Part shown: one piece after another, positions 1 to 20,930 of the stretch | Layout of the letters: every line of letters starts with the position of its first letter | Position numbering within the stretch: the first letter of the stretch is position 1 | Source: Candidatus Multivoradales bacterium | GTDB lineage: Bacteria > Acidobacteriota > Thermoanaerobaculia > Multivoradales > J023 | Direction: 5' to 3' | DNA length: 64,000 nt | NCBI GenBank assembly: GCA_965248925.1 | Contig: CBDFLE010000006.1 | Coordinates: forward strand, 3,616,001 to 3,680,000 | The notes under the pieces: generated by a model | The model's input: the letters and a program-made list of their open reading frames with translations, nothing else | Databases searched by the model: none | What the model was told of the DNA's origin: nothing | Program-made: the position numbers and the translations under genes

Positions 1-147
1 GTGGCCAGGATTCCGATCCAATCTGACCACCCATTCCGATCGATCCGGAAAAGTGGTCACTTTCGATCGGAATCGGTGGTCATATTCCGTTGGAATCACT
101 GGTCACTTTCAATCGGAATCGGTGGTCGAATTCCGTCGGTGCAGGCA
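1..147. mobile_element. IS21-family-like terminus (multiple ~23-bp subterminal repeats ending in ...GCAGGCA), inserted in the last codons of comM; possibly an internally deleted miniature element
   Basis: Four ~23-bp repeats (GTGGTCA..TTC..TCGGAATC-like) at 53-74, 75-97, 98-120 and 121-143, plus an inverted copy at 9-30. The end is CA at 146-147. Identity with the second comM copy (17672) starts exactly at 148. Confidence 0.6.
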
Positions 148-612
148 GGTCCAGGCTGCGGTATTGAATGGCCTCGGCGGCATGCGCTGCCCGAATCTCC
201 GCCGAACTGTCGAGGTCGGCGATGGTGCGGGATAGCTTGAGGATGCGGCTGAGTGCCCGTGCCGACAGCTTGAGCTTGTCGAAGGCGGTGTCGACCAAGC
301 GCTGGGCATCGGGCGCTAGCACGCAATGCTGCTCGATGCCGTCGCTCCCCAGGGAGGCATTGACCGGCAGGTCCGTCTGGGAGCCGAATCTACTGCGCTG
401 GATCTCTCTCGCCTGGCGCACTCTCCACGCTACTTCCCGAGTCCCTTCGGTGGCTTCGCTGCGCAACTCGGCAAGGCTCACCGCGGGTACCTCGACATGC
501 ATGTCGATGCGGTCGAGCAGCGGCCCTGAGACCCGACTGCGATAGCGCTCGATCATCTGTGGCGAGCATTTGCAGTGATGCCGATCGTCCCCCAAATGCC
601 CGCACTTGCATG
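148..612 (-). pseudogene. comM: 3' half of comM/YifB Mg-chelatase-like ATPase (copy 1); C-terminus replaced by IS sequence
   Basis: Translation CKCGHLGDDRHHCKCSPQMIERYRSRVSGPLLDRIDMHVEV...LSARALSRILKLSRTIADL...AEAIQYR matches the ComM C-terminal region. The N-terminal half is absent and the break lies in the AMNPCxCG motif. Confidence 0.88.
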
Positions 613-1119
613 ATTGCGGCCCCCTTTTGCCATGTCCAGTTGAGAGGACGTATCCCCAAGATTGCGGGGTATCCGCGAGAACTTGTTACGATTGGTAACC
701 ACATCAAGAGATGTCGGCTTGATCGTGGTCAGTTGCAGAAAGACGTTGCCCGAACGCTCGGCGTCTGTCTGGGTTCGATAGTAAATTGGGAACATGACAG
801 GGGCTACCCGGAAGTCCGGTTTTGGCCGGCACTCACGGACTGGCTTGGCTACGATCCAAACCCTGAGCCCGAGAATGTGGCTGAGCTGCTGATGGCTTTG
901 CGGCGCAGGCTCGGATTTTCGCAGCGCTCTCTCGCCACGGTCATCGACGTGGCACCAGAGACGATTTCGGGATGGGAGCAGCAGGCGCACCGGCCGTCAG
1001 GAAAAGCACGCCGACGACTGAGCGGCTGGATTGAGTCGCTGGAGGTCGGAGACGATCTCGCGAGGTGTGCTGCTCGGGTGGTGGTGCTGTTGCGGGGGCG
1101 GAGTGCCGTGGTGGAGTGA
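610..1119 (+). CDS. Tandem Xre-type helix-turn-helix protein at the comM integration junction
   Basis: Two HTH repeats (HIKRCRLDRGQLQKDVARTLGV..SIVNWE; ALRRRLGFSQRSLATVIDVAPETISGWE). The ATG at 610 abuts the comM break point. Confidence 0.75.
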   Translation: MIAAPFCHVQLRGRIPKIAGYPRELVTIGNHIKRCRLDRGQLQKDVARTLGVCLGSIVNWEHDRGYPEVRFWPALTDWLGYDPNPEPENVAELLMALRRRLGFSQRSLATVIDVAPETISGWEQQAHRPSGKARRRLSGWIESLEVGDDLARCAARVVVLLRGRSAVVE

Positions 1120-1456
1120 GCGCTTATTGGTCTTTTGCGAGTTGCGCGAGCAGTGCCCGCCGAATGACCTCGGGATTGGATGTGCGGCTATCGAATGCAC
1201 GCCGCGATTTTGACCATTGATATATGTAGACAATATCAGAATATCGAAAACAAGGAGTTCCCTCGCGTGCAATCTCTGTCATTCAGTGGATCGAGGGGAA
1301 ACGGTTCATTTCCAGCCTGCCAAAATGAACCGTTTGGTCTCTAACATCTTTTCCCATAGCTTGTTTGACGAAACAAAGTCGAGCGGGAACCTGGTGGGCC
1401 TAGGGCCAGTCCAAGCAAGAGAACGAATCTAGAATCTTCCAGAAAGTGAGGTAGCC

Positions 1457-1891
1457 TTGAGAGACAGAATCCCCAGATGTTCGATCCTAAACGCCGCCTG
1501 CCTACTGGCAGTCGCAGTCGCCGCCGCCACCGCCCACGCTCAATGCAACAGCACCCCCATCGCCTCGGGCGACAACGCCGAAGCCGCCTCCGCCCCGATC
1601 CTGATTGATGTCCTGGCCAACGACACCGAGCCCGACGGCGAAGCCCTGACTGTCACCGTCCTCGCCAGCACCTGCCCGGCGAGCACCGAGATCGTGCTCG
1701 ATCTGATCCGATTGACCCCGAACCCGTCGATCGATGCCAACTGCACTTTGACCTACCGCATCGAAGACGAGACCCACCACAGCACCTCGGCCACCGTCGC
1801 CGTCAAGTCCATCGCCGTGCTCTTTGGCGACAACTTTGAGTCTGGCAATGCCAATCAATGGGATAGCACCTGCCCCGGCAGCGGCTGCTGA
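1457..1891 (+). CDS. Secreted Ig-like (Big_9/cadherin-like) protein with C-terminal LFGDNFESG..W motif
   Basis: Signal-like N-terminus (AATAHA|Q), PIASGD..ILIDVLANDTEPDGEALTV and TYRIED motifs; ends 14 bp before the Rhs ATG. Confidence 0.8.
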   Translation: MRDRIPRCSILNAACLLAVAVAAATAHAQCNSTPIASGDNAEAASAPILIDVLANDTEPDGEALTVTVLASTCPASTEIVLDLIRLTPNPSIDANCTLTYRIEDETHHSTSATVAVKSIAVLFGDNFESGNANQWDSTCPGSGC

Positions 1892-1905
1892 AGGAGTCCA
1901 AGACT

Positions 1906-4900
1906 ATGCAACAGAAAATTCTCATCGCCTCACTTCTCTACGTTGCCCTCGCCGGGCCGACCGCCGCGCAACAGCCCCAGAGCCACCAGCGGGGCGTCAC
2001 CGCCGACACCGCCTTCCAAGTCGGCGCCATCGATTCGATCAACCTCTTCTCGGGGAATCTGTCGCTCCGCCTGCCCCTCGGCCAGAGCTACCCGGTGGGT
2101 CCCACTCTGAGCTACGGCTTCACCCTGACCTACAACTCCAGCGGCTGGGACTTTGACGACCAACAGAGCTGCACCGAGGGCACGCCGCCCAACCAGATGC
2201 TGGTTTCCTACAACTTGCCGATTCAAGATCTCGATGCGAATTCTGGCTGGGGGTGGCGGGTCAATCTTGGCCAGTTGGTGCGCTCCGAAGGCGGCAATCC
2301 CGCGCCACCCTTCAGCGGGTTTTCCTATTTGAGCCCTGACGGCGGGCAACACGCCTTCCACGATTTCCTCCACCCGGCCCAGAGCGGCACCTACCCGCCC
2401 GCCGGCACCCAGCCCAACACCTGGTTCACCCGCGACAGTACCTACCTGAGAATGCGCTACTACCCATTCGCCTCGAGCCCCTGCGAGACGCCGTCGAATC
2501 TGCTCGACCAGGATTGCCGGACGGTGGAATTCCCAAGTGGTGAGATGCATGAATTCCATAACATCAGCCACACCAGCTTCGATTGGCGGGTGACCAAGAT
2601 GCTCGACCGCTTCGGCCATTGGGTCAAGATAGCCTACGCCTCGGGCGGCGATTGGAGCGTCACCGATTCCGCCAACAGGAGTCATTCCCTCGATTTCACC
2701 GCCGGCCGACTGGAGAAGGTCACCCTCGCCGCTTTCAACAACCAAAGCGCCGTCTACGATCTAGTCTACTCCGGCCCGGTCGACCTGGAGCGCCAAGGCG
2801 CGCAGCCTTCGTGTGTGCCCGAAGGGGACACCCTTTCCGGCGTCCGCCTGCTCGAACGCCTGGTCTTGCCCGACGACTCGTTCTACCAAATGGACTACTA
2901 CCGCACCGACAATCCGGGAGAGAAGCTCTCGGGCGGCATCAAGTTCCTCCGTCTTCCCACGGATGGCGCCTTCGGCTGGCGGTACCAACAGATCGATTTT
3001 CATGCCCAAAGCCCAGATGTGCCCGAGGGCCGGGAGTGGGCCAACATCGGCACCGGCGTGGCCACCAAGTCGACGTTCTTGAAAGACAGCGACTATCCAA
3101 ACTCGCCCCACGGCACCTGGATCTATGACTACGATCCCCAAGGAGTGCTCGGTCCCGGCCAGATCTCCTGCTACCACACGCTCACCTTGACCGACCCGCT
3201 AGGCAACGACACGAAGCACTGGTTTAACTCCGCGGGCGCTAATCGCCAAGGCTTTGGCCTGCCCTTCACCCGCTGCACACCGGGCACCAACGACTACTAC
3301 AACAACAGCCCGCCCTACTTGTCGCAAGAGATCTATCAGGGCTCGGTGGCCAGCGGCACCAAACGCCGCTCGATCTTCCTGGAGTACGAGAACGACGGCC
3401 CGTCCGGCTTCTACGCCGACCGCAACCACCGGATGAAGTACCGCAAAGTCATCTACCACGACGACGGTGACAAGTTCCGCGAGGTCACCCACTCGGACTT
3501 CGATGGCCTGGGGCATTTTCGCACCACCACCACCGGCGGCAACTTCGCCAGTGGCAACGTGCGCGCGAGCGAGACCTTCTACAACCAGAATCGCGGCTCC
3601 TACTTGATCGCCAACAGCGATACCGGCGCCATCGACCCGGCCACCGATTTCGCCATGTTCGGCCAGACCCAGCCCTGGGTGCTAGAGACCTTCAACTCGC
3701 AATCGGTGACCGAGAACGGCGTCACCGAGACCACCGAGTATGACTTTGCGCTGCTGAACGGCTTCCTGCGCAAACGTCGGGTGCTGGCTGGCAGCTCGCG
3801 GCAGTCGAACGACTTACTAAGCATCTTCGTGCAAGCCGGCACTACCGGCTTCGTCGCCGCTGAGTTGCAGTACGGCGGCGACAGCCAGGCGATCAGCACC
3901 GCAAGCCTGGGCAACATCAACCCGGCCCACTCCGGCGCCCTTTACCGCACCAACCACAGCTACCAGTACGGCGTGCTGAGAAACTCCACGGTGGTCAACC
4001 CCTGCGCCACCAGCGAGGTGCTGCTCAAGCTGGCCGACTACGATCTCGACAAAAACACCGGCCTGGTCAAGCGCAGCCGAGACAGCGCCGGGATCAAGAT
4101 CGACTTCCTCTATGACCGGCAGGGCCGCTTGACCCATGAGTTTCCCGAGAGCGAAGCGGTGCGCCGCTACACCTACCGTTTGGCCACCCAGAGCAACTTC
4201 AACCTGATGCCGCTGCTGACCGAAGAGCAGTGCGTCACCACCGCCGCCTGCTCGGGCTCCGGCCTGCTGGCCTACCGCCAGCACACTTTCGACGGCCTCG
4301 GCCGTAGGGTCAAAGAGCAGGTGCAGTTGCCCGGCGGAGTGCGCTGGTACCGCCACATGAGCTTCAACCCACGGGCCTGGAAGACCGCGGAATCGGTGTG
4401 GACCCTCAACGCCACTTCCGACAGCCGCGTCACCAAGTACGAGCAGTACGACAACTTCGGCCGCCCCGGCAGGATCACCCCACCAAGCCAGCCGGCCACA
4501 TTCCTCAGCTACGAGGGCGAACGCACCAAGACGCGGCGGTTCAAAGTGATGCTCGCCTCCGGAGTGCAAGAAGACACCTACAACACCGAGATCTCCGATG
4601 GCCAGGGCCGATTGTTCGAGGTTTGTGAAGGCAGATCGGCGGCCTGGAATGGCAGCTGCAACGCGGGCGGCTTGCTGACTCGCTACGCCTACGACGCCGG
4701 CTCGCGGCTCACCCACGTTTGCCAGAATCGGACTGGATCGACCTGTGGCCAGCAACGCTTCTTCAACTATGACGGTCGCAGCTTCCTGACCTCCGAGACC
4801 CATCCCGAAGTCGGCCCAGTGGGCAACGGCGCCACGACCTATTCCTATGATGCTCGTGGCAGCGTTTTGAGCAAACGCATCGGTGGCTCCACCGAATTCG

Positions 4901-7026
4901 ACCTCGACTACTTCTACGATCCAGCCGGACGCCTGATCCGAGTTGACGAGAGCAACGGTGGCTCGCCGCGCAAGCTCAAGGAGTTCCGCTACGGCCGCAA
5001 GAACGTCGGTGCCGACAAGCGGGCCGGCAAGCTGGTGCAGACCACCCGCCACAATTGGGTGGATCTGGTGAATCCGCTGAACGCCAATCCTGGCTTCCTC
5101 GATGTCCGAATCTCCGAGAGCTTCGTCTACGCGGGTCGTGGCGGCCGGATGTCCGAGCGCCAGACCCGCTATCAGCTCGGCGTCGGTCACTACGCCTTCC
5201 AGAGTGGGTTCTCCTATGACCTGCAAGGCAACCTCGCGACCCTCGACTATCCCGACTGTCTGCACACCAACGACAGCTGCGACCAGGTCAGCCCACCGCG
5301 GCAGGTGAGCTTCGCTTACGACAAAGGCTTCCTCACCGCGGTGCCCGGCTTCGCCTCCAGCCTCAGCTACCAGAGCGGCGGCATGCTGACCCAGATCAGC
5401 CACCAGAGCGGCATCACCGAAACTCGCCAGGTCGATCCCTCCGGCCTCGCCCGGCCCGAGCGCATCTCCACCAACGCCGGCTGGGACACTGGCACCTTCG
5501 ACTACGACGGATCGGGCAACATCCACCGCATCGGCTCGCTGACCTACCGCTATGATCGTTTGCAGCGGCTGGTCAGCGGCGAGGCCAAGGTGGGAAGTAG
5601 CGACCGCCTGCAAACCGCGTCATATGACAACTTCGGCAATCTCACCCAGATGATCACCAACGGCGCCAGCCAGAGCATGAGCCCGAGCAGCAGCACCAAT
5701 CGCCTCGGCTTGAGCGGCACGGTGTACGATGCTGGGGGCAACCTGACCCGCGTGCGTTACAGTAGCTCGGAGATCTACCAGTACACCTACGACGCCGCCA
5801 ACATGATGAAACACCTGCAAAGCAACACAGATCAGGCGAGCGTGTACATCTACAACGCTGATGACGAGCGCATCGTCACCTTCAGCTGCTTCAGCGCCGC
5901 CGGCAGCAGCTGCGTCAGCAGCCCCGCCAGCGAGACCTGGACCTTGCGCGGGCTCGGCAACGAGGTGCTGCGGGTCTTCACCCATCCGCGGGGCGAAAGC
6001 TTCGAGTGGGAGCGGGACTACGTCTACCGGGGTGGACAGCTCCTAGCCTCGATAGACCCGGACTCCAGTGGTGTCGAGGAGACCTTCAGTTTCCATCTTG
6101 ATCATCTCGGCACGCCGCGGCAGGTAACGAAGAGTGGTAGCCAGGTGGCGCTGCACAGCTACTATCCGTTTGGGCAGGAGGCGACCAGCGCTAGCTCAGA
6201 CGAGTTTCAGCTGAAGTTTACCGGGCATGAGCGGGATCAGAACGGGGTGGGGGCGAAGAGCGAGCTGGACTACATGCATGCCAGGCATTGCAGTCCGGTG
6301 GTGGGGAGGTTCTTGGCAGTTGATCCTGTCCGGGGAAAACAGGCGTTGCCTCAGAGCTGGAACCGATTCTCCTATGTCCTGAATAATCCCCTTGCCTATA
6401 CCGATCCAGAAGGAGAGCGGACGGCGGCGCAGCTAGGACAGGCCGGGCAGGACTTGCTCTTCGATCTGACTGAGGAGGCGACGGCCCGCACGGGAGTGGG
6501 TCCGCTTAGTGTTGCTGTCGACACAGCCCTCGGAATGGGTCGAGATCTTGCGAGTGGTGTTCTCGACATCATGAAGGCTGGTGACGGGATTGGCACCGTT
6601 CTTGGGGGCGGAGCGACCGGCGGGGCAGCAGTGCTCGAGATCGGCAAGGATGTTCTCAGAGTCTCTGCGTTGGCTGGGGGCGGAGCGGTTGTTGTTCGCT
6701 CAGCAGCAAAGAAAAGCCTTGTTTCAGGGGGAGAAGCGGCTCTGTCTAAAGCGGCGGGGGCAGCTGACCGCAATGGGCTAACAAAGGCAGGACGGTCTCT
6801 TCAAAAGCATTCGTCCAGACCGGGTAGCGCATTCAATACATCGGCCACACGGGCTAAGGATCTGAACGCTGCGGGCCAGTCCGTTGTCGATGACATTCTT
6901 ACGGCACCTGGGTCGATCCAGAGAACAAACCGCCTCGGGGGTGTCGATGTCGGCCTACCAAACGGCCGAGGTATTCGCTACAACGCGGACGGGTCGTTCC
7001 GGAATTTCTTGGAGCCGAACGGATAG
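1906..7026 (+). CDS. Full-length Rhs/YD-repeat polymorphic toxin RhsA (Sec signal peptide; toxin tip CT1 'GRSLQKH...FLEP')
   Basis: 1706 aa with signal peptide MQQKILIASLLYVALAGPTAA, YD repeats, Rhs core (HLDHLGTPR, KFTGHERD, SWNRFSYVLNNPLAYTDPEG) and a variable C-terminus. Confidence 0.95.
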   Translation: MQQKILIASLLYVALAGPTAAQQPQSHQRGVTADTAFQVGAIDSINLFSGNLSLRLPLGQSYPVGPTLSYGFTLTYNSSGWDFDDQQSCTEGTPPNQMLVSYNLPIQDLDANSGWGWRVNLGQLVRSEGGNPAPPFSGFSYLSPDGGQHAFHDFLHPAQSGTYPPAGTQPNTWFTRDSTYLRMRYYPFASSPCETPSNLLDQDCRTVEFPSGEMHEFHNISHTSFDWRVTKMLDRFGHWVKIAYASGGDWSVTDSANRSHSLDFTAGRLEKVTLAAFNNQSAVYDLVYSGPVDLERQGAQPSCVPEGDTLSGVRLLERLVLPDDSFYQMDYYRTDNPGEKLSGGIKFLRLPTDGAFGWRYQQIDFHAQSPDVPEGREWANIGTGVATKSTFLKDSDYPNSPHGTWIYDYDPQGVLGPGQISCYHTLTLTDPLGNDTKHWFNSAGANRQGFGLPFTRCTPGTNDYYNNSPPYLSQEIYQGSVASGTKRRSIFLEYENDGPSGFYADRNHRMKYRKVIYHDDGDKFREVTHSDFDGLGHFRTTTTGGNFASGNVRASETFYNQNRGSYLIANSDTGAIDPATDFAMFGQTQPWVLETFNSQSVTENGVTETTEYDFALLNGFLRKRRVLAGSSRQSNDLLSIFVQAGTTGFVAAELQYGGDSQAISTASLGNINPAHSGALYRTNHSYQYGVLRNSTVVNPCATSEVLLKLADYDLDKNTGLVKRSRDSAGIKIDFLYDRQGRLTHEFPESEAVRRYTYRLATQSNFNLMPLLTEEQCVTTAACSGSGLLAYRQHTFDGLGRRVKEQVQLPGGVRWYRHMSFNPRAWKTAESVWTLNATSDSRVTKYEQYDNFGRPGRITPPSQPATFLSYEGERTKTRRFKVMLASGVQEDTYNTEISDGQGRLFEVCEGRSAAWNGSCNAGGLLTRYAYDAGSRLTHVCQNRTGSTCGQQRFFNYDGRSFLTSETHPEVGPVGNGATTYSYDARGSVLSKRIGGSTEFDLDYFYDPAGRLIRVDESNGGSPRKLKEFRYGRKNVGADKRAGKLVQTTRHNWVDLVNPLNANPGFLDVRISESFVYAGRGGRMSERQTRYQLGVGHYAFQSGFSYDLQGNLATLDYPDCLHTNDSCDQVSPPRQVSFAYDKGFLTAVPGFASSLSYQSGGMLTQISHQSGITETRQVDPSGLARPERISTNAGWDTGTFDYDGSGNIHRIGSLTYRYDRLQRLVSGEAKVGSSDRLQTASYDNFGNLTQMITNGASQSMSPSSSTNRLGLSGTVYDAGGNLTRVRYSSSEIYQYTYDAANMMKHLQSNTDQASVYIYNADDERIVTFSCFSAAGSSCVSSPASETWTLRGLGNEVLRVFTHPRGESFEWERDYVYRGGQLLASIDPDSSGVEETFSFHLDHLGTPRQVTKSGSQVALHSYYPFGQEATSASSDEFQLKFTGHERDQNGVGAKSELDYMHARHCSPVVGRFLAVDPVRGKQALPQSWNRFSYVLNNPLAYTDPEGERTAAQLGQAGQDLLFDLTEEATARTGVGPLSVAVDTALGMGRDLASGVLDIMKAGDGIGTVLGGGATGGAAVLEIGKDVLRVSALAGGGAVVVRSAAKKSLVSGGEAALSKAAGAADRNGLTKAGRSLQKHSSRPGSAFNTSATRAKDLNAAGQSVVDDILTAPGSIQRTNRLGGVDVGLPNGRGIRYNADGSFRNFLEPNG

Positions 7027-7032
7027 CTGGCC

Positions 7033-7275
7033 ATGGAAAGCGGTGATTTTGAAGTTCAGGTAATGGATGATCCAGACCACGAGGATCTCATTGCCGAGGT
7101 TCTCTACAAGGGGGAGTTTTGTTTCTTGATAAGCCAGGAGACAGGTTTTCGGAATCTGGAGATTCAGGTCCAGAGTCGGCAATCAGGCCAACCATGGCGG
7201 TTCAGTGTGGCTGAGATGGAGGACTCGATCAAACGAGCCAAGAAGCGCCTTTGGGAGCTGCAGCGTGTCGAGTGA
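7033..7275 (+). CDS. Putative immunity protein for CT1
   Basis: Small acidic 80-aa ORF 6 bp after the toxin stop; always travels with CT1 (repeated at 15764). Confidence 0.8.
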   Translation: MESGDFEVQVMDDPDHEDLIAEVLYKGEFCFLISQETGFRNLEIQVQSRQSGQPWRFSVAEMEDSIKRAKKRLWELQRVE

Positions 7276-7348
7276 TTGACACCGTCCTGGCCTAGTACAA
7301 GCCGCTTCGCATCAGCCCGGCTCCGGCCGGGCTTTCGTGCGTCTGGCT

Positions 7349-7711
7349 TCAGGTCGTGGCGTAGGACTGCCGGGTTCGCGCATCGCGGATGAGTCCGTCG
7401 ACCAAGTAGAGGATCCGGTCGCGATCTTCTCCAGAGATCTCTTCGAGGGCCTTCCAGCGGTCGAGCATCTCGCGGTCCTGGAGAGCGTGCGGCAAGGAGT
7501 TCTCGTTGACGAGGTAATCGACGGTGACCCCAAAGATGCTGGCCAGCTTGCGTGCAACCTCGACCGAAGGTGTCATGGCCCCTCGCTCGTAGCGCCCAAT
7601 GATGGTTCCCGAAGTACCGAGCTTCTCGCCAAGTACAGGTTGGGACCACCCCTTGCTCTTCCTCAGCTCGTGAATTCGGTGTCCGAGAGGGCTGTCGGAT
7701 CGCTTTGCCAT
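7349..7711 (-). CDS. Xre-family HTH repressor
   Basis: RIHELRKSKGWSQPVLGEKLGTSGTIIGRYERGAMTPSVEVARKLASIFGVTVDYL; transcribed divergently from the symE-primase operon. Confidence 0.92.
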   Translation of the reverse strand: MAKRSDSPLGHRIHELRKSKGWSQPVLGEKLGTSGTIIGRYERGAMTPSVEVARKLASIFGVTVDYLVNENSLPHALQDREMLDRWKALEEISGEDRDRILYLVDGLIRDARTRQSYATT

Positions 7712-7764
7712 GACCTAATCATCCTGAAATCAACGGTTTTGGCTCCTAACACATCACATTAGCG

Positions 7765-7841
7765 GACGTTTTCGTGCTGGTCAAGACGGCAGGGGCTTGA
7801 CAGTTAGTAGACGAATCGGTCATCATCGGGACGAAAAGGTT
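7765..7841 (+). promoter_or_regulatory. Divergent promoter with three candidate Xre operators
   Basis: TTGACA at 7797-7802 with CATCAT at 7821-7826. Imperfect palindromes GACG-N4-(C/G)GT at 7765-7776, 7810-7821 and 7830-7841. Confidence 0.5.
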
Positions 7842-7868
7842 CTGATGAAGAAAATCGAGGAGAGCAAA

Positions 7869-8081
7869 ATGATCGACCGCACCCTGACCATCTCCAGCCT
7901 CTACCCGTCCTCATCGGCTCCCTCGGGCTGGCGCTCGGTGCGCCAGGCTCGTCGGCAGCGGGCAGTGCCCTTTCTGCGGCTATCGGGCCGGTGGCTGGAA
8001 TCGGCGGGCTTCGAGATCGGCTCGAAGGTGCGGGTAGTGGTCGAGGCAGATCGCCTGGTGGTGGAGCCGGCGGATGTGTGA
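7869..8081 (+). CDS. symE: SymE-family (AbrB-fold) protein
   Basis: VPFLRLSGRWLESAGFEIGSKVRVVVEADRLVV is the SymE signature; GAGGAG RBS before ATG 7869. Confidence 0.85.
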   Translation: MIDRTLTISSLYPSSSAPSGWRSVRQARRQRAVPFLRLSGRWLESAGFEIGSKVRVVVEADRLVVEPADV

Positions 8082-8295
8082 GCAGAGGCTTCGGGTGTCG
8101 AGCTTCTACCGCCCCGGTTGGCCGGCGGCACCTGCTCTGGAGCGGCCGTCGCCGCTCCTGCTGCTGGTGGGCTCGTGGCTGGCTGAGGCGGGGTTTGCTC
8201 CTGGGGATGAGGTGCGGGTGTCGGGGGGGGATGGGCGGTTGCAGGTCGTTCGGCGGGAGCTGGGCGAGAATACGCCGGCTTGGGGAGGGCGGTAG
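8074..8295 (+). CDS. Second SymE-like protein
   Basis: PLLLLVGSWLAEAGFAPGDEVRVSGGDGRLQV is a SymE-like motif; overlaps the previous stop. Confidence 0.65.
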   Translation: MCEQRLRVSSFYRPGWPAAPALERPSPLLLLVGSWLAEAGFAPGDEVRVSGGDGRLQVVRRELGENTPAWGGR

Positions 8296-8297
8296 GG

Positions 8298-11200
8298 GTG
8301 AGCAGGATTCCCGAAGCTGAGGTTGAGCGGCTAAAGCGAGAGGTGTCGGTGGAGCGCCTGGCCTTGGCCCGGGGGGTGAAGCTGAAGCGGCATGGAGCGG
8401 ACCTACTGGGGCTGTGCCCGTTTCACGACGACCGCGAGCCGTCGCTGGTGATCTCGCCGAAGAAGAATCTGTGGCACTGCCTGGGCGCCTGCCAGGCAGG
8501 CGGGTCGGTGATCGATTGGGTGATGCGGGATCGCGGGGTGTCGTTTCGCCACGCGGTGGAGCTGCTGCGCTCGGACCTGCCGGCGGCGGTCGCAGCGGCT
8601 CCGGCCACGGCTCCGGCTCTGCCGTCGCCGGTGGTGGCGGAGGCTGAGGATGCGGAGCTGCTCGGCCAGGTCGTCGGCTACTACCACGAAGCCTTGAAGG
8701 AGAGCCCGGAGGCGCTGGCTTACCTGGAGAGTCGGGGTTTGAAGCATCCGGAGATGATCGAGCATTTCCGGCTTGGCTTTGCCAATCGGACGCTGGGCTA
8801 CCGGCTGCCGCCGAAGCAGGTGAAGGCGGGCAAGGAGATGCGGGGTCGATTGCAGAAGCTCGGTGTGCTGCGCAAGTCGGGGCATGAGCACTTCAATGGC
8901 TCGATCGTCTTTCCGGTCTTCGATTCCACAGGCCAGGTGGCGGAGATGTACGGGCGCAAGATCACGCCGAATCTCCGGAAAGGAACGCCGCTGCATCTCT
9001 ACCTGCCGGGGCTGCACCGGGGCATCTTCAATCCGGAAGCTCTGGTGGCCTCGACCGAGATCATTCTCTGCGAGTCGCTGATCGACGCCTTGACCTTCTG
9101 GTGCGCGGGCTACCGCAACGTCACCAGCGCCTACGGCATCCAGGGCTTCACCGACGAGATGCTAGTGGCCTTTGGCGGTCATGGCACCCGCCGAGTGCTG
9201 ATTGCCTACGACCGGGACGACGCCGGCGAGAAGGCGGCCGGGAAGCTGGCCGAGCAGCTGATGGGTGCCGGGATCGACTGCTACCGAATCCACTTTCCGC
9301 GCGGCATGGACGCCAACGAGTACGCGCTGAAGGTGACCCCCGCCTCGAAGTCGCTGGGGGTGGCCATCCGCCGAGCACAGTGGCTCGGCAAAGGCAAGGC
9401 GCCCGAGGTGAAGCTGGGTTTTGAGCCCGTAGAGGGCGAGGTGGCGCCGCCAGCCGAGCCAACGACATCGCCACACACAGCCGCAGAGGCGGTATTGGTG
9501 CCGCCAGTCCCGGCCGAAGCCTCTCCGCTACCGCCGCCGCCACCGTCGGATGTGCCGGCCGAGGTGCGTGAGCAGGAGGTGGTGCTGTCGCTCGGCGATC
9601 GCCGCTATCGGATTCGCGGCCTGCCGAAGAATCTGGCCTACGACGTGCTCAAGGTCAACGTCCTGGCGTCGCAGGGTGACAGCTTCCACGTCGATACCTT
9701 CGATCTCTACTCGGCACGGCCGCGCTCGGTGTTTCAGCGAGCGGCGGCCGCTGAGCTGGGGGTCGAGGAGCAGGTGGTCAAGAAGGATCTGGGCAAGGTG
9801 CTCTTGAAGCTCGAGGAGCTGCAAGACGAGCAGATCCGCTCGGCGCTTGAGCCGCAGTCGGTGGCCATCGCGCTGTCGGAGGAAGAGAAGGAAGCGGCGC
9901 TTGAGCTGCTGCGCTCGCCGGAGCTGCTCCAGCGCATCCTTGAGGACTTCGAGCGCTGCGGGGTGGTGGGCGAGGAGGTCAACAAGCTGATGGGCTACCT
10001 GGCGGCTACCTCGCGCTTTCTGGAGCGCCCTTTGGCGGTGGTGGTGCAATCGAGCTCAGCGGCCGGCAAGTCGGCGCTGATGGAGGCGGTGCTGGCGCTG
10101 ATGCCGGGTGAGGAGCAAGTGAAGTACTCGGCGATGACCGGGCAATCGCTGTTCTACATGGGCGAGACGAACCTGCAGCACAAGATCTTGGCGATCGTCG
10201 AGGAGGAAGGCGCCGAGCGAGCGAGCTATGCGCTCAAGCTCCTGCAGTCGGAAGGTGAGCTGACGATTGCCTCGACTGGCAAGGACGCTTCAACGGGCAA
10301 GCTGGTGACGCACGAGTACCACGTCGAAGGGCCGGTGATGATCTTCTTGACGACCACGGCGATCGACATCGATGAGGAGCTGCTCAACCGCTGCCTGGTG
10401 CTGTCGGTAGACGAGGCGCGGGAGCAGACGCGGGCGATTCACCGGCTGCAGCGCGAGCGGCGGACCCTCGAAGGGCTGCTATCACGCACCAGGCGCGACG
10501 GGGTGACGGCATTACACCAGAACGCACAGCGGCTGCTGCGGCCGCTGGCCGTGGTCAATCCATTCGCTCCGGAGCTGACCTTTCTCGATACCCAGATCAG
10601 GACGCGGCGGGATCACGAGAAGTACCTGACGCTGATCGATGTGATTGCTCTCCTGCACCAGCACCAGCGGGAGGTGAAGCGGGCGGTGGTCGACGGGCGA
10701 GAGGTCGAGTACGTGGAGGTGGTGGCCACGGACATCGAGACCGCCAACCGCCTGGCGCACGAGGTGCTGGGGCGCTCGCTCGATGAGCTACCACCGCAGA
10801 CGCGGCGCTTGCTGGGGCTGATCGACGCGATGGTCAGCGAAGCCTGCGAAGCGCTGGCGATGGATCGCCCGGACTACCGCTTCAGCCGGCGAGCGGTGCG
10901 CGAGCACACCGGCTGGGGCAACACGCAGCTGAAGCTGCACCTGCGCCGTCTCGAGGAGCTGGAGTATCTGCTGGTGCATCAGGGTGGGCGGGGGCAGAGC
11001 TTCGTCTACGAGCTGGTCTACGTGGCCGGCGACGAGTCCGAGCGGCCGCGACTGCCGGGGCTGATCGAGGTCGAAGCACTCCGGTACGACGGAAAGAAGT
11101 CGGGCCAGGCTGGCGAGAAGTCGGGGCCAAGTCGGCCCCAAGTCGGGGGGGTATCGGGGGGTGGTCGGGGTGCAGTTTCCCCAGCAGAATCAACAGCTTC

Positions 11201-11318
11201 GGCCGGAAATCGTGGGGTTTCGTCGAAAAACGCACATAGGGGGGTGCAAGAAAACGGCTCGTCATATCGTAAATCAACACGTCGTACCCACGACTCAGAG
11301 ACGGCCGAGAGTGCGTGA
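8298..11318 (+). CDS. DNA primase/helicase-like protein: CHC2 zinc finger + Toprim + P-loop ATPase
   Basis: CPFHDDREPSL..WHCLGAC zinc finger; CESLIDALT and AYDRDDAG Toprim motifs; Walker A-like SSSAAGKS; likely GTG start at 8298. Confidence 0.9.
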   Translation: MSRIPEAEVERLKREVSVERLALARGVKLKRHGADLLGLCPFHDDREPSLVISPKKNLWHCLGACQAGGSVIDWVMRDRGVSFRHAVELLRSDLPAAVAAAPATAPALPSPVVAEAEDAELLGQVVGYYHEALKESPEALAYLESRGLKHPEMIEHFRLGFANRTLGYRLPPKQVKAGKEMRGRLQKLGVLRKSGHEHFNGSIVFPVFDSTGQVAEMYGRKITPNLRKGTPLHLYLPGLHRGIFNPEALVASTEIILCESLIDALTFWCAGYRNVTSAYGIQGFTDEMLVAFGGHGTRRVLIAYDRDDAGEKAAGKLAEQLMGAGIDCYRIHFPRGMDANEYALKVTPASKSLGVAIRRAQWLGKGKAPEVKLGFEPVEGEVAPPAEPTTSPHTAAEAVLVPPVPAEASPLPPPPPSDVPAEVREQEVVLSLGDRRYRIRGLPKNLAYDVLKVNVLASQGDSFHVDTFDLYSARPRSVFQRAAAAELGVEEQVVKKDLGKVLLKLEELQDEQIRSALEPQSVAIALSEEEKEAALELLRSPELLQRILEDFERCGVVGEEVNKLMGYLAATSRFLERPLAVVVQSSSAAGKSALMEAVLALMPGEEQVKYSAMTGQSLFYMGETNLQHKILAIVEEEGAERASYALKLLQSEGELTIASTGKDASTGKLVTHEYHVEGPVMIFLTTTAIDIDEELLNRCLVLSVDEAREQTRAIHRLQRERRTLEGLLSRTRRDGVTALHQNAQRLLRPLAVVNPFAPELTFLDTQIRTRRDHEKYLTLIDVIALLHQHQREVKRAVVDGREVEYVEVVATDIETANRLAHEVLGRSLDELPPQTRRLLGLIDAMVSEACEALAMDRPDYRFSRRAVREHTGWGNTQLKLHLRRLEELEYLLVHQGGRGQSFVYELVYVAGDESERPRLPGLIEVEALRYDGKKSGQAGEKSGPSRPQVGGVSGGGRGAVSPAESTASAGNRGVSSKNAHRGVQENGSSYRKSTRRTHDSETAESA
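11097..11169 (+). repeat. Helically phased AAGTCGG(G)-type repeats (iteron-like) in the 3' end of the primase gene
   Basis: TCGG cores at 11100, 11121, 11132, 11143, 11154 and 11165 (spacing 21, 11, 11, 11, 11). Confidence 0.7.
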
Positions 11319-12391
11319 TGGCGCGCCGTGGTCAGCGCAAGATCCGCCTCTTGCCGGGTGATCCTACTGATCCCAGAGGTTTCATGGTGATGGTTAGCAA
11401 GTACCTGGAGTGGATGGCGGTCAAGAGCTACTCACCGCACACCATCGAGGCCCGCCACCTCTACCTCAGCCACCTCATCATCTGGTGTGAGCAGCGCGGG
11501 GTAACGCGGCCGGCGGAGGTGACCAAGCCGATCCTGGAGCGCTACGCGCAGTGGCTCTACCACTACCGCAAGCCCGCGAACGGACGACCCTTGAGCTTTC
11601 GCACGCAGCTCACGCGGCTAGTGCCGGTGCGCGCCTTCTTCAAGTGGGCGGCACGGGCCAATTACTTGCTCTACAACCCGGCCTCGGAGCTAGAGCTGCC
11701 GAAGCCAGAGCAGCGGCTGCCGGCAGCGGTGCTCACTGCCGCAGAAGCCGACCAGGTGCTCAACCAGCCGGACACGATGGACCCGCTTGGCTTGCGGGAC
11801 AGAGCGATCCTCGAAGTCTTCTACTCGACCGGCATACGCCGGGCCGAGATGATCGGGCTGGGGCGCTACGATCTCGACGTCAACCGGGAAACGCTGATGG
11901 TGCGTCAGGGCAAGGGACGCAAGGACCGGATGATCCCCCTCGGCGAGCGGGCGCTGGCCTGGGTCGACCGCTACGTCACCGAGGTACGGCCCCATCTGGT
12001 GGTCGAGCCGGACGATGGAGCGCTCTTTCTCACCAACGATGGAATGTCCTTCACGACGTCATGGATGACCCCGCTGGTGCGCGGTTACGTGGTGGCCGCC
12101 GATATCGGCAAACCGGGCGCCTGCCACCTCTTTCGCCACACCATGGCGACGCTGATGCTCGAAGGTGGGGCGGATATCCGCTTTGTCCAGCAGATGCTCG
12201 GCCACGCCAGGCTAGAGACGACGCAGATCTACACTCAGGTCTCGATCCGCAAGCTGAGAGAGATTCACGCCACAACGCATCCGGGGGCGAAGCTGGGGAG
12301 CCGGGTGGTGCAGTCGGCGGAAGAAGACGGTAGCAATGAAGTGACCGCCGAGGACTTACTCGATGCGGTGGAGGAAGAAGCGGAGGACTGA
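11318..12391 (+). CDS. XerC/XerD-like tyrosine recombinase
   Basis: RDRAILEVFYSTGIRRAE, GKGRKDR, HLFRHTMAT and LGHARLETTQIY give the full R-K-H-R-H-Y catalytic set; TGATG coupling to the primase. Confidence 0.95.
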   Translation: MARRGQRKIRLLPGDPTDPRGFMVMVSKYLEWMAVKSYSPHTIEARHLYLSHLIIWCEQRGVTRPAEVTKPILERYAQWLYHYRKPANGRPLSFRTQLTRLVPVRAFFKWAARANYLLYNPASELELPKPEQRLPAAVLTAAEADQVLNQPDTMDPLGLRDRAILEVFYSTGIRRAEMIGLGRYDLDVNRETLMVRQGKGRKDRMIPLGERALAWVDRYVTEVRPHLVVEPDDGALFLTNDGMSFTTSWMTPLVRGYVVAADIGKPGACHLFRHTMATLMLEGGADIRFVQQMLGHARLETTQIYTQVSIRKLREIHATTHPGAKLGSRVVQSAEEDGSNEVTAEDLLDAVEEEAED

Positions 12392-12804
12392 CCCTGCCCC
12401 CCACCCGAAGCGGTCCGGGTCTCCGTGCTCGGGCTGCGGCCGGCCTGGCGGCCGTCCTCCGCTCCTGCGCGCGCAGCCCTCGGCTGTGTTTGTTTTCTCA
12501 CCCCTGCCCGCCCCGGTCCGAGCGTCCGTGATCCACCGCCCGTACCCTCCGGTCACCGGCCCAGAGCGGGGCTTCAAGTAGTCCAAGAAAAGAGTCTTCG
12601 AAAGCTCACCCCAAGCTCCGCCGAGGCGTGTGTCCCTCCGGTCGCTACGCTCCCTGCGGGCACGGGCCAGCCGCTGCGGCAAGCCGGGCGCCCGCCGGCC
12701 CCCACCCCTGGCCCTCCGTCGGTCACCCGGCTTGCAATCTCCGCTGTCCGATAGTGCGCCACTATCCGACCTGGCCCTCACAAGCCCCGGCTCCGGGCCT
12801 GCGG

Positions 12805-12834
12805 CCTTTCCATAACGCGTGCATTATGGAAACT
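12805..12834. other. dif/cer-like recombination site
   Basis: CCTTTCCATAA-CGCGTGCA-TTATGGAAACT: 9-bp perfect inverted arms, 8-bp spacer, and the CATAA/TTATG cores of Xer sites; about 415 bp downstream of the recombinase. Confidence 0.7.
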
Positions 12835-13596
12835 TGGGGTGAGCACGCTGGTGGCCTGCGGTGGTCAGCGGCTTCGGAACCACGCCCCGCTCTGGGCCTC
12901 CTTGCCGAGATCCACCAGCCAGCACTCAGGCGGCTCGGGCCGGACACCCGTCCGCCCCCTCAAGGGGGCTCCCCATCCTCCTCCCAAGACCCACCCGGCG
13001 CCAGGTCCTCCGTACCCTGCGCGCGGCGCCCTGCGGTCGCCGTGCTCAGCTCCGGCCCCACCGCCACCCACCCGAGAAGAAGACCCCCGCCCACCCCGTC
13101 CACCAGCTGCGCTCATGGCCGGCCGCCCCCACGCACCCAACGTGCAGCTTGGCTTGCCGGCTACGCCGCCGGCACCAAACTGCCGGGAAGACCCGCACTC
13201 GCTGCGACGATCAGCCCGACGAAAACGACCTAAGAAAACACCCACCGCCCGAAGAACACAGCCTAAGAAAACCGCATCCCGCCCCACCGCACCAACCACC
13301 CTCCCTCCTTTAGCCGCCGTCTTCGAGCACCAACAGCGGCGTAGAATGGCCCAGCATGAGGCAGGCAGCTAAAGGAAGAAGCATCTGGCGATCGCGCTCG
13401 GCTTGGTCGTCGTGCTTCTGGCCGTGACGATACCGGCGGCAGTGATCGCATCGGCGATGCACCGAGCTACGCCAAAACTCGCCTCTGGGTCTTCGAGAGC
13501 CAAGACCCCGCAGGCATCAGGTACGAGCGAGCTTAAGTGCAAACAGCTCTATGGGATACGTCGCGTCTTGCCCGAAACTTGCGTCGGGGTGTCCAC

Positions 13597-15757
13597 TTTG
13601 AGCAAACGCATCGGTGGCTCCACCGAATTCGACCTCGACTACTTCTACGATCCAGCCGGACGCCTGATCCGAGTTGACGAGAGCAACGGTGGCTCGCCGC
13701 GCAAGCTCAAGGAGTTCCGCTACGGCCGCAAGAACGTCGGTGCCGACAAGCGGGCCGGCAAGCTGGTGCAGACCACCCGCCACAATTGGGTGGATCTGGT
13801 GAATCCGCTGAACGCCAATCCTGGCTTCCTCGATGTCCGAATCTCCGAGAGCTTCGTCTACGCGGGTCGTGGCGGCCGGATGTCCGAGCGCCAGACCCGC
13901 TATCAGCTCGGCGTCGGTCACTACGCCTTCCAGAGTGGGTTCTCCTATGACCTGCAAGGCAACCTCGCGACCCTCGACTATCCCGACTGTCTGCACACCA
14001 ACGACAGCTGCGACCAGGTCAGCCCACCGCGGCAGGTGAGCTTCGCTTACGACAAAGGCTTCCTCACCGCGGTGCCCGGCTTCGCCTCCAGCCTCAGCTA
14101 CCAGAGCGGCGGCATGCTGACCCAGATCAGCCACCAGAGCGGCATCACCGAAACTCGCCAGGTCGATCCCTCCGGCCTCGCCCGGCCCGAGCGCATCTCC
14201 ACCAACGCCGGCTGGGACACTGGCACCTTCGACTACGATGGATCGGGCAACATCCACCGAATCGGCTCGCTGCAATACCGCTATGATCGTCTGCAGCGGC
14301 TGGTCAGCGGCGAAGCCAAGGTGGGCAGCAGCGACCGCCTACAAACCGCGTCGTATGACAACTTCGGCAACCTCACGCAGATGATCACCAACGGCGCAAG
14401 CCAGAGCATGAGCCCGAGCAGCGCCACCAACCGCCTCGGTCTCAGCGGCACCACCTATGACGCTGGCGGCAACCTGACCCGCGTGCGTTACAGTAGCTCG
14501 GAGATCTACGAGTACACGTACGACGCCGCCAACATGATGAAACACCTGCAATCCAACACCGACCAGGCGAGCGTGTACATCTACAACGCTGATGACGAGC
14601 GCATCGTCACCTTCAGCTGCTTCAGCGCCGCCGGCAGCAGCTGCGTCAGTAGCCCGGCCAGCGAGACCTGGACCCTGCGCGGGCTGGGCAACGAGGTGCT
14701 GCGGGTCTTTAGCCATCCACGTGGGGAGAGCTTCGAGTGGGAGCGCGACTACGTCTATCGGGGTGGACAGCTCCTAACCTCGGTAGACCCGGACGCCAGT
14801 GGTGTCGAGGAGACCTTCAGTTTCCATCTTGATCATCTCGGCACGCCGCGGCAGGTAACGAAGAGTGGTAGCCAGGTGGCGCTGCACAGCTACTATCCGT
14901 TTGGGCAGGAGGCGACCAGCGCTAGCTCAGACGAGTTTCAGCTGAAGTTTACCGGGCATGAGCGGGATCAGAACGGGGTGGGGGCGAAGAGCGAGCTGGA
15001 CTACATGCATGCCAGGCATTGCAGTCCGGTGGTGGGGAGGTTCTTGGCAGTTGATCCTGTCCGGGGAAAACAGGCGTTGCCTCAGAGCTGGAACCGATTC
15101 TCCTATGTCCTGAATAATCCCCTTGCCTATACCGATCCAGAAGGAGAGCGGACGGCGGCGCAGCTAGGACAGGCCGGGCAGGACTTGCTCTTCGATCTGA
15201 CTGAGGAGGCGACGGCCCGCACGGGAGTGGGTCCGCTTAGTGTTGCTGTCGACACAGCCCTCGGAATGGGTCGAGATCTTGCGAGTGGTGTTCTCGACAT
15301 CATGAAGGCTGGTGACGGGATTGGCACCGTTCTTGGGGGCGGAGCGACCGGCGGGGCAGCAGTGCTCGAGATCGGCAAGGATGTTCTCAGGGTCTCTGCG
15401 TTGGCTGGGGGCGGAGCGGTTGTTGTTCGCTCAGCAGCAAAGAAAAGCCTTGTTTCAGGGGGAGAAGCGGCTCTGTCTAAAGCGGCGGGGGCAGCTGACC
15501 GCAATGGGCTAACAAAGGCAGGACGGTCTCTTCAAAAGCATTCGTCCAGACCGGGTAGCGCATTCAATACATCGGCCACACGGGCTAAGGATCTGAACGC
15601 TGCGGGCCAGTCCGTTGTCGATGACATTCTTACGGCACCTGGGTCGATCCAGAGAACAAACCGCCTCGGGGGTGTCGATGTCGGCCTACCAAACGGCCGA
15701 GGTATTCGCTACAACGCGGACGGGTCGTTCCGGAATTTCTTGGAGCCGAACGGATAG
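13597..15757 (+). pseudogene. Orphan Rhs 3' cassette carrying toxin tip CT1
   Basis: Rhs homology starts abruptly at 13597 (LSKRIGGSTEF...). The frame is open upstream to 13373 through a non-Rhs leader. The CT is the same as in RhsA. Confidence 0.88.
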
Positions 15758-15763
15758 CTGGCC

Positions 15764-16006
15764 ATGGAAAGCGGTGATTTTGAAGTTCAGGTAATGGATG
15801 ATCCAGACCACGAGGATCTCATTGCCGAGGTTCTCTACAAGGGGGAGTTTTGTTTCTTGATAAGCCAGGAGACAGGTTTTCGGAATCTGGAGATTCAGGT
15901 CCAGAGTCGGCAATCAGGCCAACCATGGCGGTTCAGTGTGGCTGAGATGGAGGACTCGATCAAACGAGCCAAGAAGCGCCTTTGGGAGCTGCAGCGTGTC
16001 GAGTGA
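15764..16006 (+). CDS. CT1 immunity protein, copy 2
   Basis: Identical translation to 7033-7275. Confidence 0.8.
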   Translation: MESGDFEVQVMDDPDHEDLIAEVLYKGEFCFLISQETGFRNLEIQVQSRQSGQPWRFSVAEMEDSIKRAKKRLWELQRVE

Positions 16007-16079: not shown

Positions 16080-16442
16080 TCAGGTCGTGGCGTAGGACTG
16101 CCGGGTTCGCGCATCGCGGATGAGTCCGTCGACCAAGTAGAGGATCCGGTCGCGATCTTCTCCAGAGATCTCTTCGAGGGCCTTCCAGCGGTCGAGCATC
16201 TCGCGGTCCTGGAGAGCGTGCGGCAAGGAGTTCTCGTTGACGAGGTAATCGACGGTGACCCCAAAGATGCTGGCCAGCTTGCGTGCAACCTCGACCGAAG
16301 GTGTCATGGCCCCTCGCTCGTAGCGCCCAATGATGGTTCCCGAAGTACCGAGCTTCTCGCCAAGTACAGGTTGGGACCACCCCTTGCTCTTCCTCAGCTC
16401 GTGAATTCGGTGTCCGAGAGGGCTGTCGGATCGCTTTGCCAT
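16080..16442 (-). CDS. Xre-family repressor, copy 2
   Basis: Identical translation to 7349-7711. Confidence 0.92.
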   Translation of the reverse strand: MAKRSDSPLGHRIHELRKSKGWSQPVLGEKLGTSGTIIGRYERGAMTPSVEVARKLASIFGVTVDYLVNENSLPHALQDREMLDRWKALEEISGEDRDRILYLVDGLIRDARTRQSYATT

Positions 16443-16687: not shown

Positions 16688-16712
16688 CAGAGAAATAGGT
16701 GCCAGGCACATT
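16686..16712. repeat. REP-like palindrome at the 3' end of the RAYT gene
   Basis: GTGCC-A-GGCAC (16699-16709); GCCAGAGAAATAGGTGCC recurs at 26919-26936. Confidence 0.55.
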
Positions 16713-17652
16713 ATGAAGAGTCAGAAGGGGTGTTGGTGTCAACGAATTTTGGTCTTGGCGGGAAGGAGTTTTCAGGAAATCCGCTAGGTGCTCCACGGCT
16801 TCGAAGTTTCTCCGCGGCCGTACGGTATGCAGTGAGGAATTCGCCCAAGGCCAAGCGCATCGCGTGCCGGACTTTCTTCCGATAGACGTGAAAGAAGGGG
16901 GGTGGGTTTGTCGGTTGCTGGCCGGGGCGTCGATGTGTCTGCTGCTGGCCGACGAGGAATGCGCCGAGGGGCTCGGTTCCTCGGTCTTGATGGAGTCTTG
17001 CAGTATCTCTCTCGATCTTCTCGATGAGTTCCAAGATGTGTTGCTGCCGAGCTTCTGGCGCAAGATGCTTCCAGCATGGCAGGGTGTCGAGCTTTAACTC
17101 GACGTCGGTTTCGAAGTCGGACTCCTCGGTGTCGGCCTCGCGCTGGCTCGCCGCCCATTGCCGAGTGCGGTCGATCCAGATTCCCCTCAGCGGATAGCCC
17201 GTCAGGAGCGCTCCTGCGCAGTGGGCTCCCGGCCACTCGAGGGGTGACATCACGAGACTTTTTTTGCACCCTTGAGAGAGGATGTATTCGAGGCGCTTGA
17301 TCTGAGCTTCCTCTTCGTCGCTGACCGGAATCATGGTGTAGCGCCGGTCGAACATCGAGCCGGGCCAGTCGTGGAGACGACCTATTTCTTTGGCTATGTT
17401 GGTCTTGAGGTGTCCCATAAATCGCGCAATCTGTTCGACGGTGGCCGGTGAAGCGAGTAGGTGGAAGTGATTTGAGAGGACGGCGATCGCCTGGACGGCG
17501 AGCTCGGTTTCTTGCTGGGCTTTGGCAAGAATTCCGATTAGAAGCTGATTGAGACGCCGGCTCGGTCGTAGGAGGTAGCGCCCTTGCAGAGTCCGCTGGG
17601 TGATCTCGACCAAGCAGCCGGGACGCGGCAAGTAGCGTGGTAAACGTGGCAT
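16711..17652 (-). CDS. RAYT-like HUH (Y1) transposase
   Basis: MPRLPRY..VEITQRT..AVLSNHFHLL (HUH)..FDRRY..LEYILSQ..PLEWPG; 313 aa from ATG 17652, which overlaps the comM stop (TGATG). Confidence 0.85.
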   Translation of the reverse strand: MPRLPRYLPRPGCLVEITQRTLQGRYLLRPSRRLNQLLIGILAKAQQETELAVQAIAVLSNHFHLLASPATVEQIARFMGHLKTNIAKEIGRLHDWPGSMFDRRYTMIPVSDEEEAQIKRLEYILSQGCKKSLVMSPLEWPGAHCAGALLTGYPLRGIWIDRTRQWAASQREADTEESDFETDVELKLDTLPCWKHLAPEARQQHILELIEKIERDTARLHQDRGTEPLGAFLVGQQQTHRRPGQQPTNPPPFFHVYRKKVRHAMRLALGEFLTAYRTAAEKLRSRGAPSGFPENSFPPRPKFVDTNTPSDSS

Positions 17653-20424: not shown

Positions 20425-20481
20425 CTAGGGCCAGTCCAAGCAAGAGAACGAATCTAGAATCTTCCAGAAAGTGAGGTAGCC

Positions 20482-20916: not shown

Positions 20917-20930
20917 AGGAGTCCAAGACT

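Follow-up and report, generated by a model that had tools for sequence, protein, structure and literature searches.

A mosaic Rhs gene in an acidobacterium joins the body of one paralogue to the predicted toxin tip also found in an orphan cassette, within 13 bases

In Salmonella, homologous recombination following a duplication fuses a main rhs gene to an orphan tip, and the orphan toxin is then deployed (Koskiniemi et al. 2014, PMC3967940). An earlier model proposed that the C-terminal part of Rhs proteins is displaced via a circular tip intermediate, a circle that was postulated and, in that account, not found (Jackson et al. 2009, PMC2935791). In Snodgrassella alvi, integrase-like genes lie near the Rhs loci, and the authors suggested that they might aid capture (Steele et al. 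2017, PMC5727410). Here we analyse a comparable joint in a stretch of 64,000 nucleotides from a Candidatus Multivoradales bacterium (contig CBDFLE010000006.1, positions 3,616,001 to 3,680,000), hereafter the window, whose numbering is used throughout. Its first 30 kb contain four related Rhs pieces: RhsA (A), an orphan fragment (O), RhsB (B) and a second orphan (D). Positions preceded by C4, C5 or C6 refer to contigs of the same genome. A sequence-only reading of the window had described RhsA as the product of a toxin swap, with a RhsB-type body, the core and tip of the orphan, and a switch within 13 bases.

The copies were compared position by position (A against O with an offset of +8731) and by a four-way alignment. 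Over 145-6077, A and B differ at 8 sites in all: 1 mismatch in 145-1403 and 7 in 1400-6077 (positions 1711, 1720, 1726, 1747, 1748, 3093 and 3468), with none in 3469-6077. The change at 3093 is private to B, and that at 3468 is private to A. Beyond the joint, 33 mismatches separate A from B in 6078-6315, and homology then stops. Comparison of A with O gave 0 mismatches in 4866-5507, 48 in 5508-6064, and then a single one in the 1892 bases of 6065-7956, at 6660 (AGA/AGG, synonymous). The A/O homology stops sharply at 7956/16687. The informative sites (n=81) fall into two groups with no exceptions, the 48 sites of 5508-6064 all having A=B≠O and the 33 sites of 6078-6315 all having A=O≠B. Under random order, such a perfect split at 6064/6078 has a probability of 2/C(81,48) = 3.7e-23. 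Synonymous changes dominate on both sides of the joint: among the 41 codons that differ between A and O in the patch, 33 are synonymous and 8 non-synonymous, and among the 29 that differ between A and B in the tip, 24 are synonymous and 5 non-synonymous.

The mosaic is therefore sharp, and the motifs on which it had been recognised, GACTCC at 6061-6066 and CCAGTGGTGTCGA at 6065-6077, are exact in wording and position. That RhsA is of RhsB type on the left and of orphan type on the right, with a single switch within 6065-6077, holds at 81/81 informative sites, and the four-way alignment, a check proposed with the sequence-only reading, confirms the interval. Since A/B identity stops at 6077 and A/O identity begins at 6065, two boundaries that coincide within 13 bases, the pattern argues for a single exchange. 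A single recent event also fits because the A/B and A/O divergences are similarly tiny (for A/B, two private point changes and one five-site patch in 5.9 kb; for A/O, 1 change in 2.5 kb). Only a B-type body with an orphan-type tip accounts for this position by a single event, and we accept it as the description of RhsA.

We attribute the joint, with a probability of roughly 0.8, to homologous recombination or gene conversion among the members of a large Rhs family that is itself mosaic, with the switch in 6065-6077. The exchange, presumably of RecA type, would use the long near-identical core homology common to the three copies, and would correspond to a crossover or to the end of a gene conversion tract, resolved inside the 13-base identical stretch. 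The B-type body would have been joined to the proximal of the two cassette copies that flank a primase/integrase module (described below), either by crossover or by long conversion from RhsB. As an outcome, the near-identical predicted secreted shells of A and B would display different toxins, and the tip of A would also exist as a silent truncated copy in O.

Which copy acted as donor is a separate question. The first 642 bases of O (4866-5507) show no difference from A or from B, a point not raised in the sequence-only reading, and the A/O difference is therefore a 557-base patch between two identical blocks. O is itself a mosaic, and it is not a pure parent, its first 642 bases being B-type. 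The small AbrB/SymE-like gene that follows the tip is intact after RhsA and cut after O, for which reason the RhsA tip lies in the complete cassette and the copy in O is a truncated duplicate. A conversion tract coming from O would moreover need to stop exactly where the homology of O stops (7956/16687). A B-type body joined to, or converted onto, a tip already resident at the RhsA locus is equally possible as O being the donor. The sequence-only reading is therefore upheld for the chimera and for its 13-base switch, while a donor role of the orphan and a swap of toxins are not demonstrated: A and O share one tip and one candidate immunity gene, and no trace of a former RhsA tip is seen.

The exchange is set in a family that has recombined extensively. 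Eleven copies in the genome match A 4866-6316 at more than 85% identity over at least 1100 bases, and a protein search detected 58 Rhs ends, of which 50 are distinct. Over the last 240 bases of the core, A and O have one version in common, and every other copy has its own, at 25-35 mismatches from A. Runs of pairwise identity end at 5420, 5427, 5477, 5507, 5519, 5552, 5720, 5861, 5904, 5925, 6046, 6051, 6064, 6077 and 6237, tip boundaries across the family fall at 5925, 6051, 6065 and 6237, and a second Rhs family, 75% similar, is equally mosaic. The B-type patch is present in A and B and nearly so in one C5 copy (4 mismatches); the 557-base patch of O has at least 38 mismatches to any copy in the genome. 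These scattered run ends point to ongoing homologous exchange rather than to one special site. A small exchange is also seen upstream of the joint: the five-site A/B cluster at 1711-1748, located in the upstream Big_9 open reading frame (ORF), is identical to a C5 paralogue (C5_716), which marks it as a micro gene conversion involving copies from separate large contigs. C5 also has three full-length Rhs units of the first family in tandem (C5:689783-716239). The upstream region of the third unit contains the same 2.9 kb insertion sequence that ends to the left of RhsA (Table 1), here itself interrupted and with an apparent 7-base target duplication.

A chimera between repeats can also arise in silico, by joining RhsB-type and orphan-type reads across long repeats during assembly or polishing, with no such molecule in the cell. 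The repeats are indeed long (4.7 kb identical to B and 1.9 kb identical to O, among 11 close paralogues), and the view of the reads is limited to contigs from one sample. These contigs (Logan) derive from four public runs, probably the source of the assembly, and we compared them with a k=31 graph built from the assembly. The 17 junction 31-mers (starts 6048-6064, containing both T6064 and G6078) each occur once in the assembly. From the assembly graph, one unitig is expected to cover 6065-6168; if the junction k-mers specific to A were missing, a unitig along O would begin at 6048. One contig (run X4, record 22) covers exactly 6065-6168. Its start at 6065 therefore indicates that the reads hold two different bases before the sequence specific to A and O, the second of which is supplied by the chimeric phase alone; the junction phase, T6064 with G6078, is thus required by the reads. 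Another contig (run X5, record 30, 6286-8085) connects the tip to unique DNA downstream of RhsA, and loose contig ends at 7956 in runs X2, X3 and X4 correspond to the continuation proper to O. In addition, the 7.98 Mb genome is assembled in six contigs, two of them of 5.2 and 2.4 Mb, with dozens of 6-8 kb repeats resolved, and the assembly reads were therefore long enough to span them. We consider an assembly artefact highly improbable. At 6660, where RhsA has A and O has G, one public-run contig shows the other letter; the two tip copies are evidently collapsed in it.

Several observations weigh against an exchange of this kind, or limit what can be said of it. The pattern fixes neither the direction nor the number of events, and the identity of the first 642 bases of O with A and B implies at least one further exchange or patchy conversion. 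No earlier tip of RhsA being visible, a swap is not demonstrated. No genome close enough to show the unrecombined state was found, the best non-self match reaching at most 72% identity in a DNA search of 40 other genomes, and a 25-base degenerate pattern able to match any of the three junction types had 0 matches in a metagenome scan. Three independent run ends fall within 6046-6077, and some local preference for exchange is therefore possible. Concerning the reads, the 47-base junction contig is absent among the 32 of 143 pieces listed, so that the phase comes from a contig boundary rather than from a direct read, and the support consists of contigs of four runs from a single sample.

Two biological alternatives were weighed against homologous exchange into RhsA. 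RhsA might be the older gene, two separate events having ended together: RhsB would have gained a foreign tip from 6078 on, and O, copied in part from RhsA, would have taken up a foreign patch of 557 bases that ends at 6064. A three-sequence pattern alone gives no direction, the classical model as presented by Jackson et al. (PMC2935791) has incoming DNA replace the tip, the O patch has no close donor in the genome (38 mismatches to the nearest copy), and run ends are mildly clustered at 6046-6077. This scenario nonetheless requires two independent boundaries within 13 bases as well as a donor absent from the genome, and the equally tiny A/B and A/O divergence suits one event better, which makes it improbable. 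Alternatively, the joint might have been made site-specifically by the neighbouring XerC-like integrase, 6065-6077 being the core of its attachment site. The two tip copies have the integrase/primase module directly between them, 14/14 module right ends in the genome adjoin Rhs coding sequence, and relatives of the module in other phyla adjoin Rhs ends. Yet at 12/14 right ends the orphan core begins near the equivalent of 6126, and in the window at 4866, rather than at 6065-6077; tip boundaries vary across the family, and the second family is also mosaic. No repeat of the 13-mer was seen at the module ends, though no search aimed at it was made. We regard this alternative as very improbable. 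A fixed recombination site at 6065-6077 was considered as such and is unsupported, as run ends vary and the module right ends meet the core elsewhere.

Coordinates of the features are collected in Table 1.

Table 1. Features of the RhsA-RhsB region, and sites of the primase/integrase module elsewhere (window numbering unless a contig or locus is named)
Feature	Position	Strand	Remarks
Insertion sequence, right end	1-148		element of 2.9 kb; adjoins left limit of A/B homology (145)
B-type block of RhsA locus	145-6077	+	upstream genes and RhsA body; near-identical to 17669-18927 plus 20425-25102
RhsA	1906-7026	+	1706 amino acids (aa), reading frame intact
A=B≠O patch	5508-6064	+	48 sites separate A from O
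Exchange interval	6065-6077	+	13 bases, CCAGTGGTGTCGA
Tip cassette common to A and O	6065-7956	+	last 250 bases of core, toxin, candidate immunity gene, XRE repressor, start of AbrB-like gene
Predicted C-terminal toxin domain of RhsA	6415-7026	+	after DPEG motif
Candidate immunity gene	7033-7275	+	80 aa; second copy 15764-16006; role from position alone
XRE/RstR-like repressor of module	7349-7711	-	NF041951, 77.8 bits against a cut-off of 80; phrog_8; second copy 16080-16442
AbrB/SymE-like small gene	7797-8081	+	intact after RhsA; cut at codon 53 after O; conserved in relatives of the module
DnaG-type primase, C-terminal P-loop part	8280-11318	+	1012 aa
XerC-like tyrosine recombinase	11315-12391	+	358 aa; NF002331, 432 bits against a cut-off of 371
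Module right arm, conserved 1.2 kb	12392-13596	+	without convincing ORF; ends in ...GGGGTGTCCACTT
O (orphan Rhs fragment)	13597-15757	+	core from equivalent of A 4866, and same toxin tip as RhsA
O-specific patch	14239-14795	+	nearest other copy in the genome: 38 mismatches
RhsB unit, upstream part	16688-17668		common to units on C5; missing upstream of RhsA
IS5-like insertion upstream of RhsB	18928-20424	+	CTAG target duplication; absent from RhsA copy
RhsB	20931-25967	+	1678 aa; own tip from 25103 on
D (second orphan)	27014-29037	+	mosaic; in-frame stop in core; tip with weak eCIS_core (PF13699) match
Module sites in the genome	window 7349-13596; C4:71212-76280, 253745-260096; C5:921976-982386; C6:1344728-1350193, 3498166-3518762		
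Related loci in other genomes	L013-L087		examples: L047 2425-11354, L048 962-12739, L021, L036, L019

The proteins have the features of Rhs polymorphic shells and tips. YD repeats were recognised by Pfam PF05593 (RHS_repeat) in RhsA (E 1.5e-19), RhsB (2.6e-18) and O (1.4e-12), and also by TIGR01643, and the Rhs-associated core domain of RhsA by TIGR03696 (Rhs_assc_core, aa 1419-1503, 58.1 bits against a cut-off of 32.5). The RhsA core terminates in NPLAYTDPEG (6388-6414), beyond which the tips of A, B and D are mutually unrelated. The N-terminus of RhsA resembles, as judged by eye, a Sec signal peptide. Pfam searches matched RHS_repeat alone in RhsA and RhsB and, with the neighbours included, revealed no PAAR domain and no linkage to vgrG or hcp, the wider genome not being searched for a type VI secretion system (T6SS); the neighbours matched by Pfam are one helix-turn-helix (HTH) protein and one Big_9 protein. 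For the predicted toxins of A and B, neither Pfam nor NCBIfam gave a notable family match; the A tip has a weak sequence match (E 1.1e-4) to PDB entry 6d7y_A, named 'Hemagglutinin'. The ORF of the candidate immunity gene, without family match in Pfam or NCBIfam, lies directly 3' of the RhsA stop and was duplicated along with the tip.

Two further coding features of the region are worth recording. An ORF of 144 aa that contains a bacterial Ig (Big_9)/cadherin-like domain is found at 1457-1891 and again at 20482-20916, and stops 15 bases before each Rhs start, in a different frame; it may encode an accessory protein of its own, or represent an N-terminal extension that a frameshift has cut off. 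Orphan D combines A/B-type with orphan-type sites, and its in-frame core stop reads RLRYSS*EIYQY.

The flanks of the RhsA and RhsB units differ. On the left of RhsA, the 2.9 kb insertion sequence (C6:3613246-3616148), which has more than 20 copies at ~99% identity, ends exactly at the left limit of A/B homology, and the DNA beyond it is unrelated to the RhsB upstream region; this suggests an insertion sequence-linked rearrangement. Upstream of RhsB, an IS5-like element (DUF772 and DDE transposase) lies between the HTH gene and the Big_9 ORF, in a region that is otherwise near-identical to its RhsA counterpart, which has no such element. This later insertion may affect expression of RhsB. A simple unequal crossover, or a duplication followed by a deletion, was rejected as the history of the region: they predict the orders O-chimera-main or chimera-main-O, and the observed order and flanks disagree.

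The two copies of the tip are direct repeats of 3091 bases around a 5640-base primase/integrase module (7957-13596), a tip-module-tip layout. The order of genes is a divergent XRE/RstR-like repressor, the primase and the XerC-like integrase, followed by the conserved right arm of 1.2 kb. The integrase part and the right end each occur 14 times in the genome, at ~82-89% identity and mostly in arrays with a period of ~7.8 kb behind Rhs genes of the second family. All the right ends (...GGGCTGTCCCCTT) run directly into Rhs coding sequence: 12 join the last 190 bases of a core, that of the window joins the core at 4866, and 1 joins what appears by eye to be another YD repeat. The right arm is conserved among module copies (~85-88%) but has no convincing ORF, and a search of 1-32000 found no Rfam family and no tRNA; it is a candidate attachment site, origin or RNA.

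Relatives of the module, many of them in tandem arrays, adjoin Rhs ends in Acidobacteriota, Planctomycetota, Alpha- and Gammaproteobacteria, Verrucomicrobiota, Riflebacteria and others. By our own count, the primase adjoins the integrase in 44/75 related loci from many phyla, and 17 matches to Rhs ends occur in 13 of these 75 loci. All are same-strand matches, located upstream of the repressor or else 0.3-1.4 kb beyond the integrase. Tandem arrays are present in 5 of the 12 loci examined, with periods of 6.9-7.7 kb. The unit is also associated with a relaxase in one alphaproteobacterial locus (L047), and with a NikA-like protein in another (L036); any Pfam match at all was obtained for 5/22 ORFs. 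In the species collection, the nearest integrases come from Thermoanaerobaculia genomes (78-79% aa identity), a likeness that weakly hints at an acidobacterial host of the module.

The unit in the window contains an integrase and replication genes and has direct target repeats at both ends, as would an Rhs-tip integrative element, a category that we propose and that corresponds to no established family. Tip-module-tip is the product expected from single-crossover insertion, or from tandem duplication, of a circular tip-bearing element. In a circle closed between the two repeats, the only new joint would be the continuity from right end through tip to module. The RhsA event is probably tied to such a tip-bearing element, rather than being a simple copy from orphan to main gene. 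It is conceivable, though on balance doubtful, that the joint marks the left-hand scar of a toxin-tip element of 8.7 kb, made up of a core fragment, the toxin, the immunity gene, the repressor, the primase and the XerC-like integrase, which recombines into conserved rhs 3' ends. Such an element would be the episomal 'tip circle' of Jackson et al. 2009 in a self-replicating, integrase-bearing form, and the turnover of Rhs tips across phyla would then be driven by dedicated mobile elements and not just by fortuitous homologous recombination. We found no description of a Rhs-tip integrase/primase module in the literature, supplements and subscription journals not being covered.

Compared with Salmonella as reported (PMC3967940), the likeness is close: homologous recombination fuses a main body to an orphan tip, the immunity gene travels with the tip, and ancestral and recombinant forms coexist. 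As in a fusion of a main gene to an orphan, O has no 5' part and shares the core (from A 4866, right after the module end), and the joint falls inside this shared core. In Salmonella, however, the locus was duplicated and the main tip deleted in one copy, the order being chimera-main-orphan with a homology of 522 bp at 95% (PMC3967940). Here the order is chimera-module-orphan-main, the assembly shows the chimera as fixed, and the tip copies are set apart by an integrase/primase module. RhsA differs further by its apparent Sec signal (judged by eye), with no PAAR or VgrG link seen. RhsB keeps the B tip and could be the retained parent, but gene order and flanks do not fit a duplication followed by deletion.

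With the model of Jackson et al. (PMC2935791), the region has in common that core and tips are evolutionarily uncoupled, that orphan core pieces are of variable length, and that direct core repeats are arranged as after a single crossover with a circle. In contrast with this model, the intervening DNA encodes an integrase and a primase, and both flanking tips are identical in kind, with no displaced different tip visible. As in S. alvi (PMC5727410), there are many Rhs genes and orphans per genome and rapid recombination between toxin and core. The S. alvi loci are T6SS-linked and belong to a proteobacterium, and one integrase and one primase per cassette in regular arrays of ~7-8 kb are not described in the available part of that article (PMC5727410).

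Similar element architectures are known elsewhere. The recombinase-associated interbacterial defence arrays (rAID) of Bacteroidales combine a Xer-like tyrosine recombinase with arrays of toxin-related and immunity genes (bioRxiv 10.1101/471110), and tycheposons are integrase and primase/helicase elements that form tandem stacks at tRNA genes (bioRxiv 10.1101/2020.12.28.424599). The likeness to tycheposons is one of description, and the target here would be the 3' end of a protein-coding rhs gene, the cargo a toxin tip. Tycheposons reportedly carry a copy of the 3' end of their target gene, and rAID arrays are said to have one recombinase per array and to consist of immunity genes, not of full toxin tips fused to a delivery gene.

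The RhsA joint is a new instance of a known process, by which an Rhs shell acquires the tip of a silent cassette. It provides an example narrowed down to 13 bases, the two sequence types still lying close by, outside enterobacteria and in a genome with an unusually large store of tips (58 Rhs ends), where exchange between paralogues on different large contigs is also seen. The surrounding integrase/primase cassettes are more interesting than the joint itself and merit a separate study: every orphan cassette in the genome has its own primase and integrase, and the same module adjoins Rhs ends in distant phyla. If these modules are active elements, they would answer a question open since 2009, namely how a tip can move as a stable circle and be inserted while the old tip is kept.

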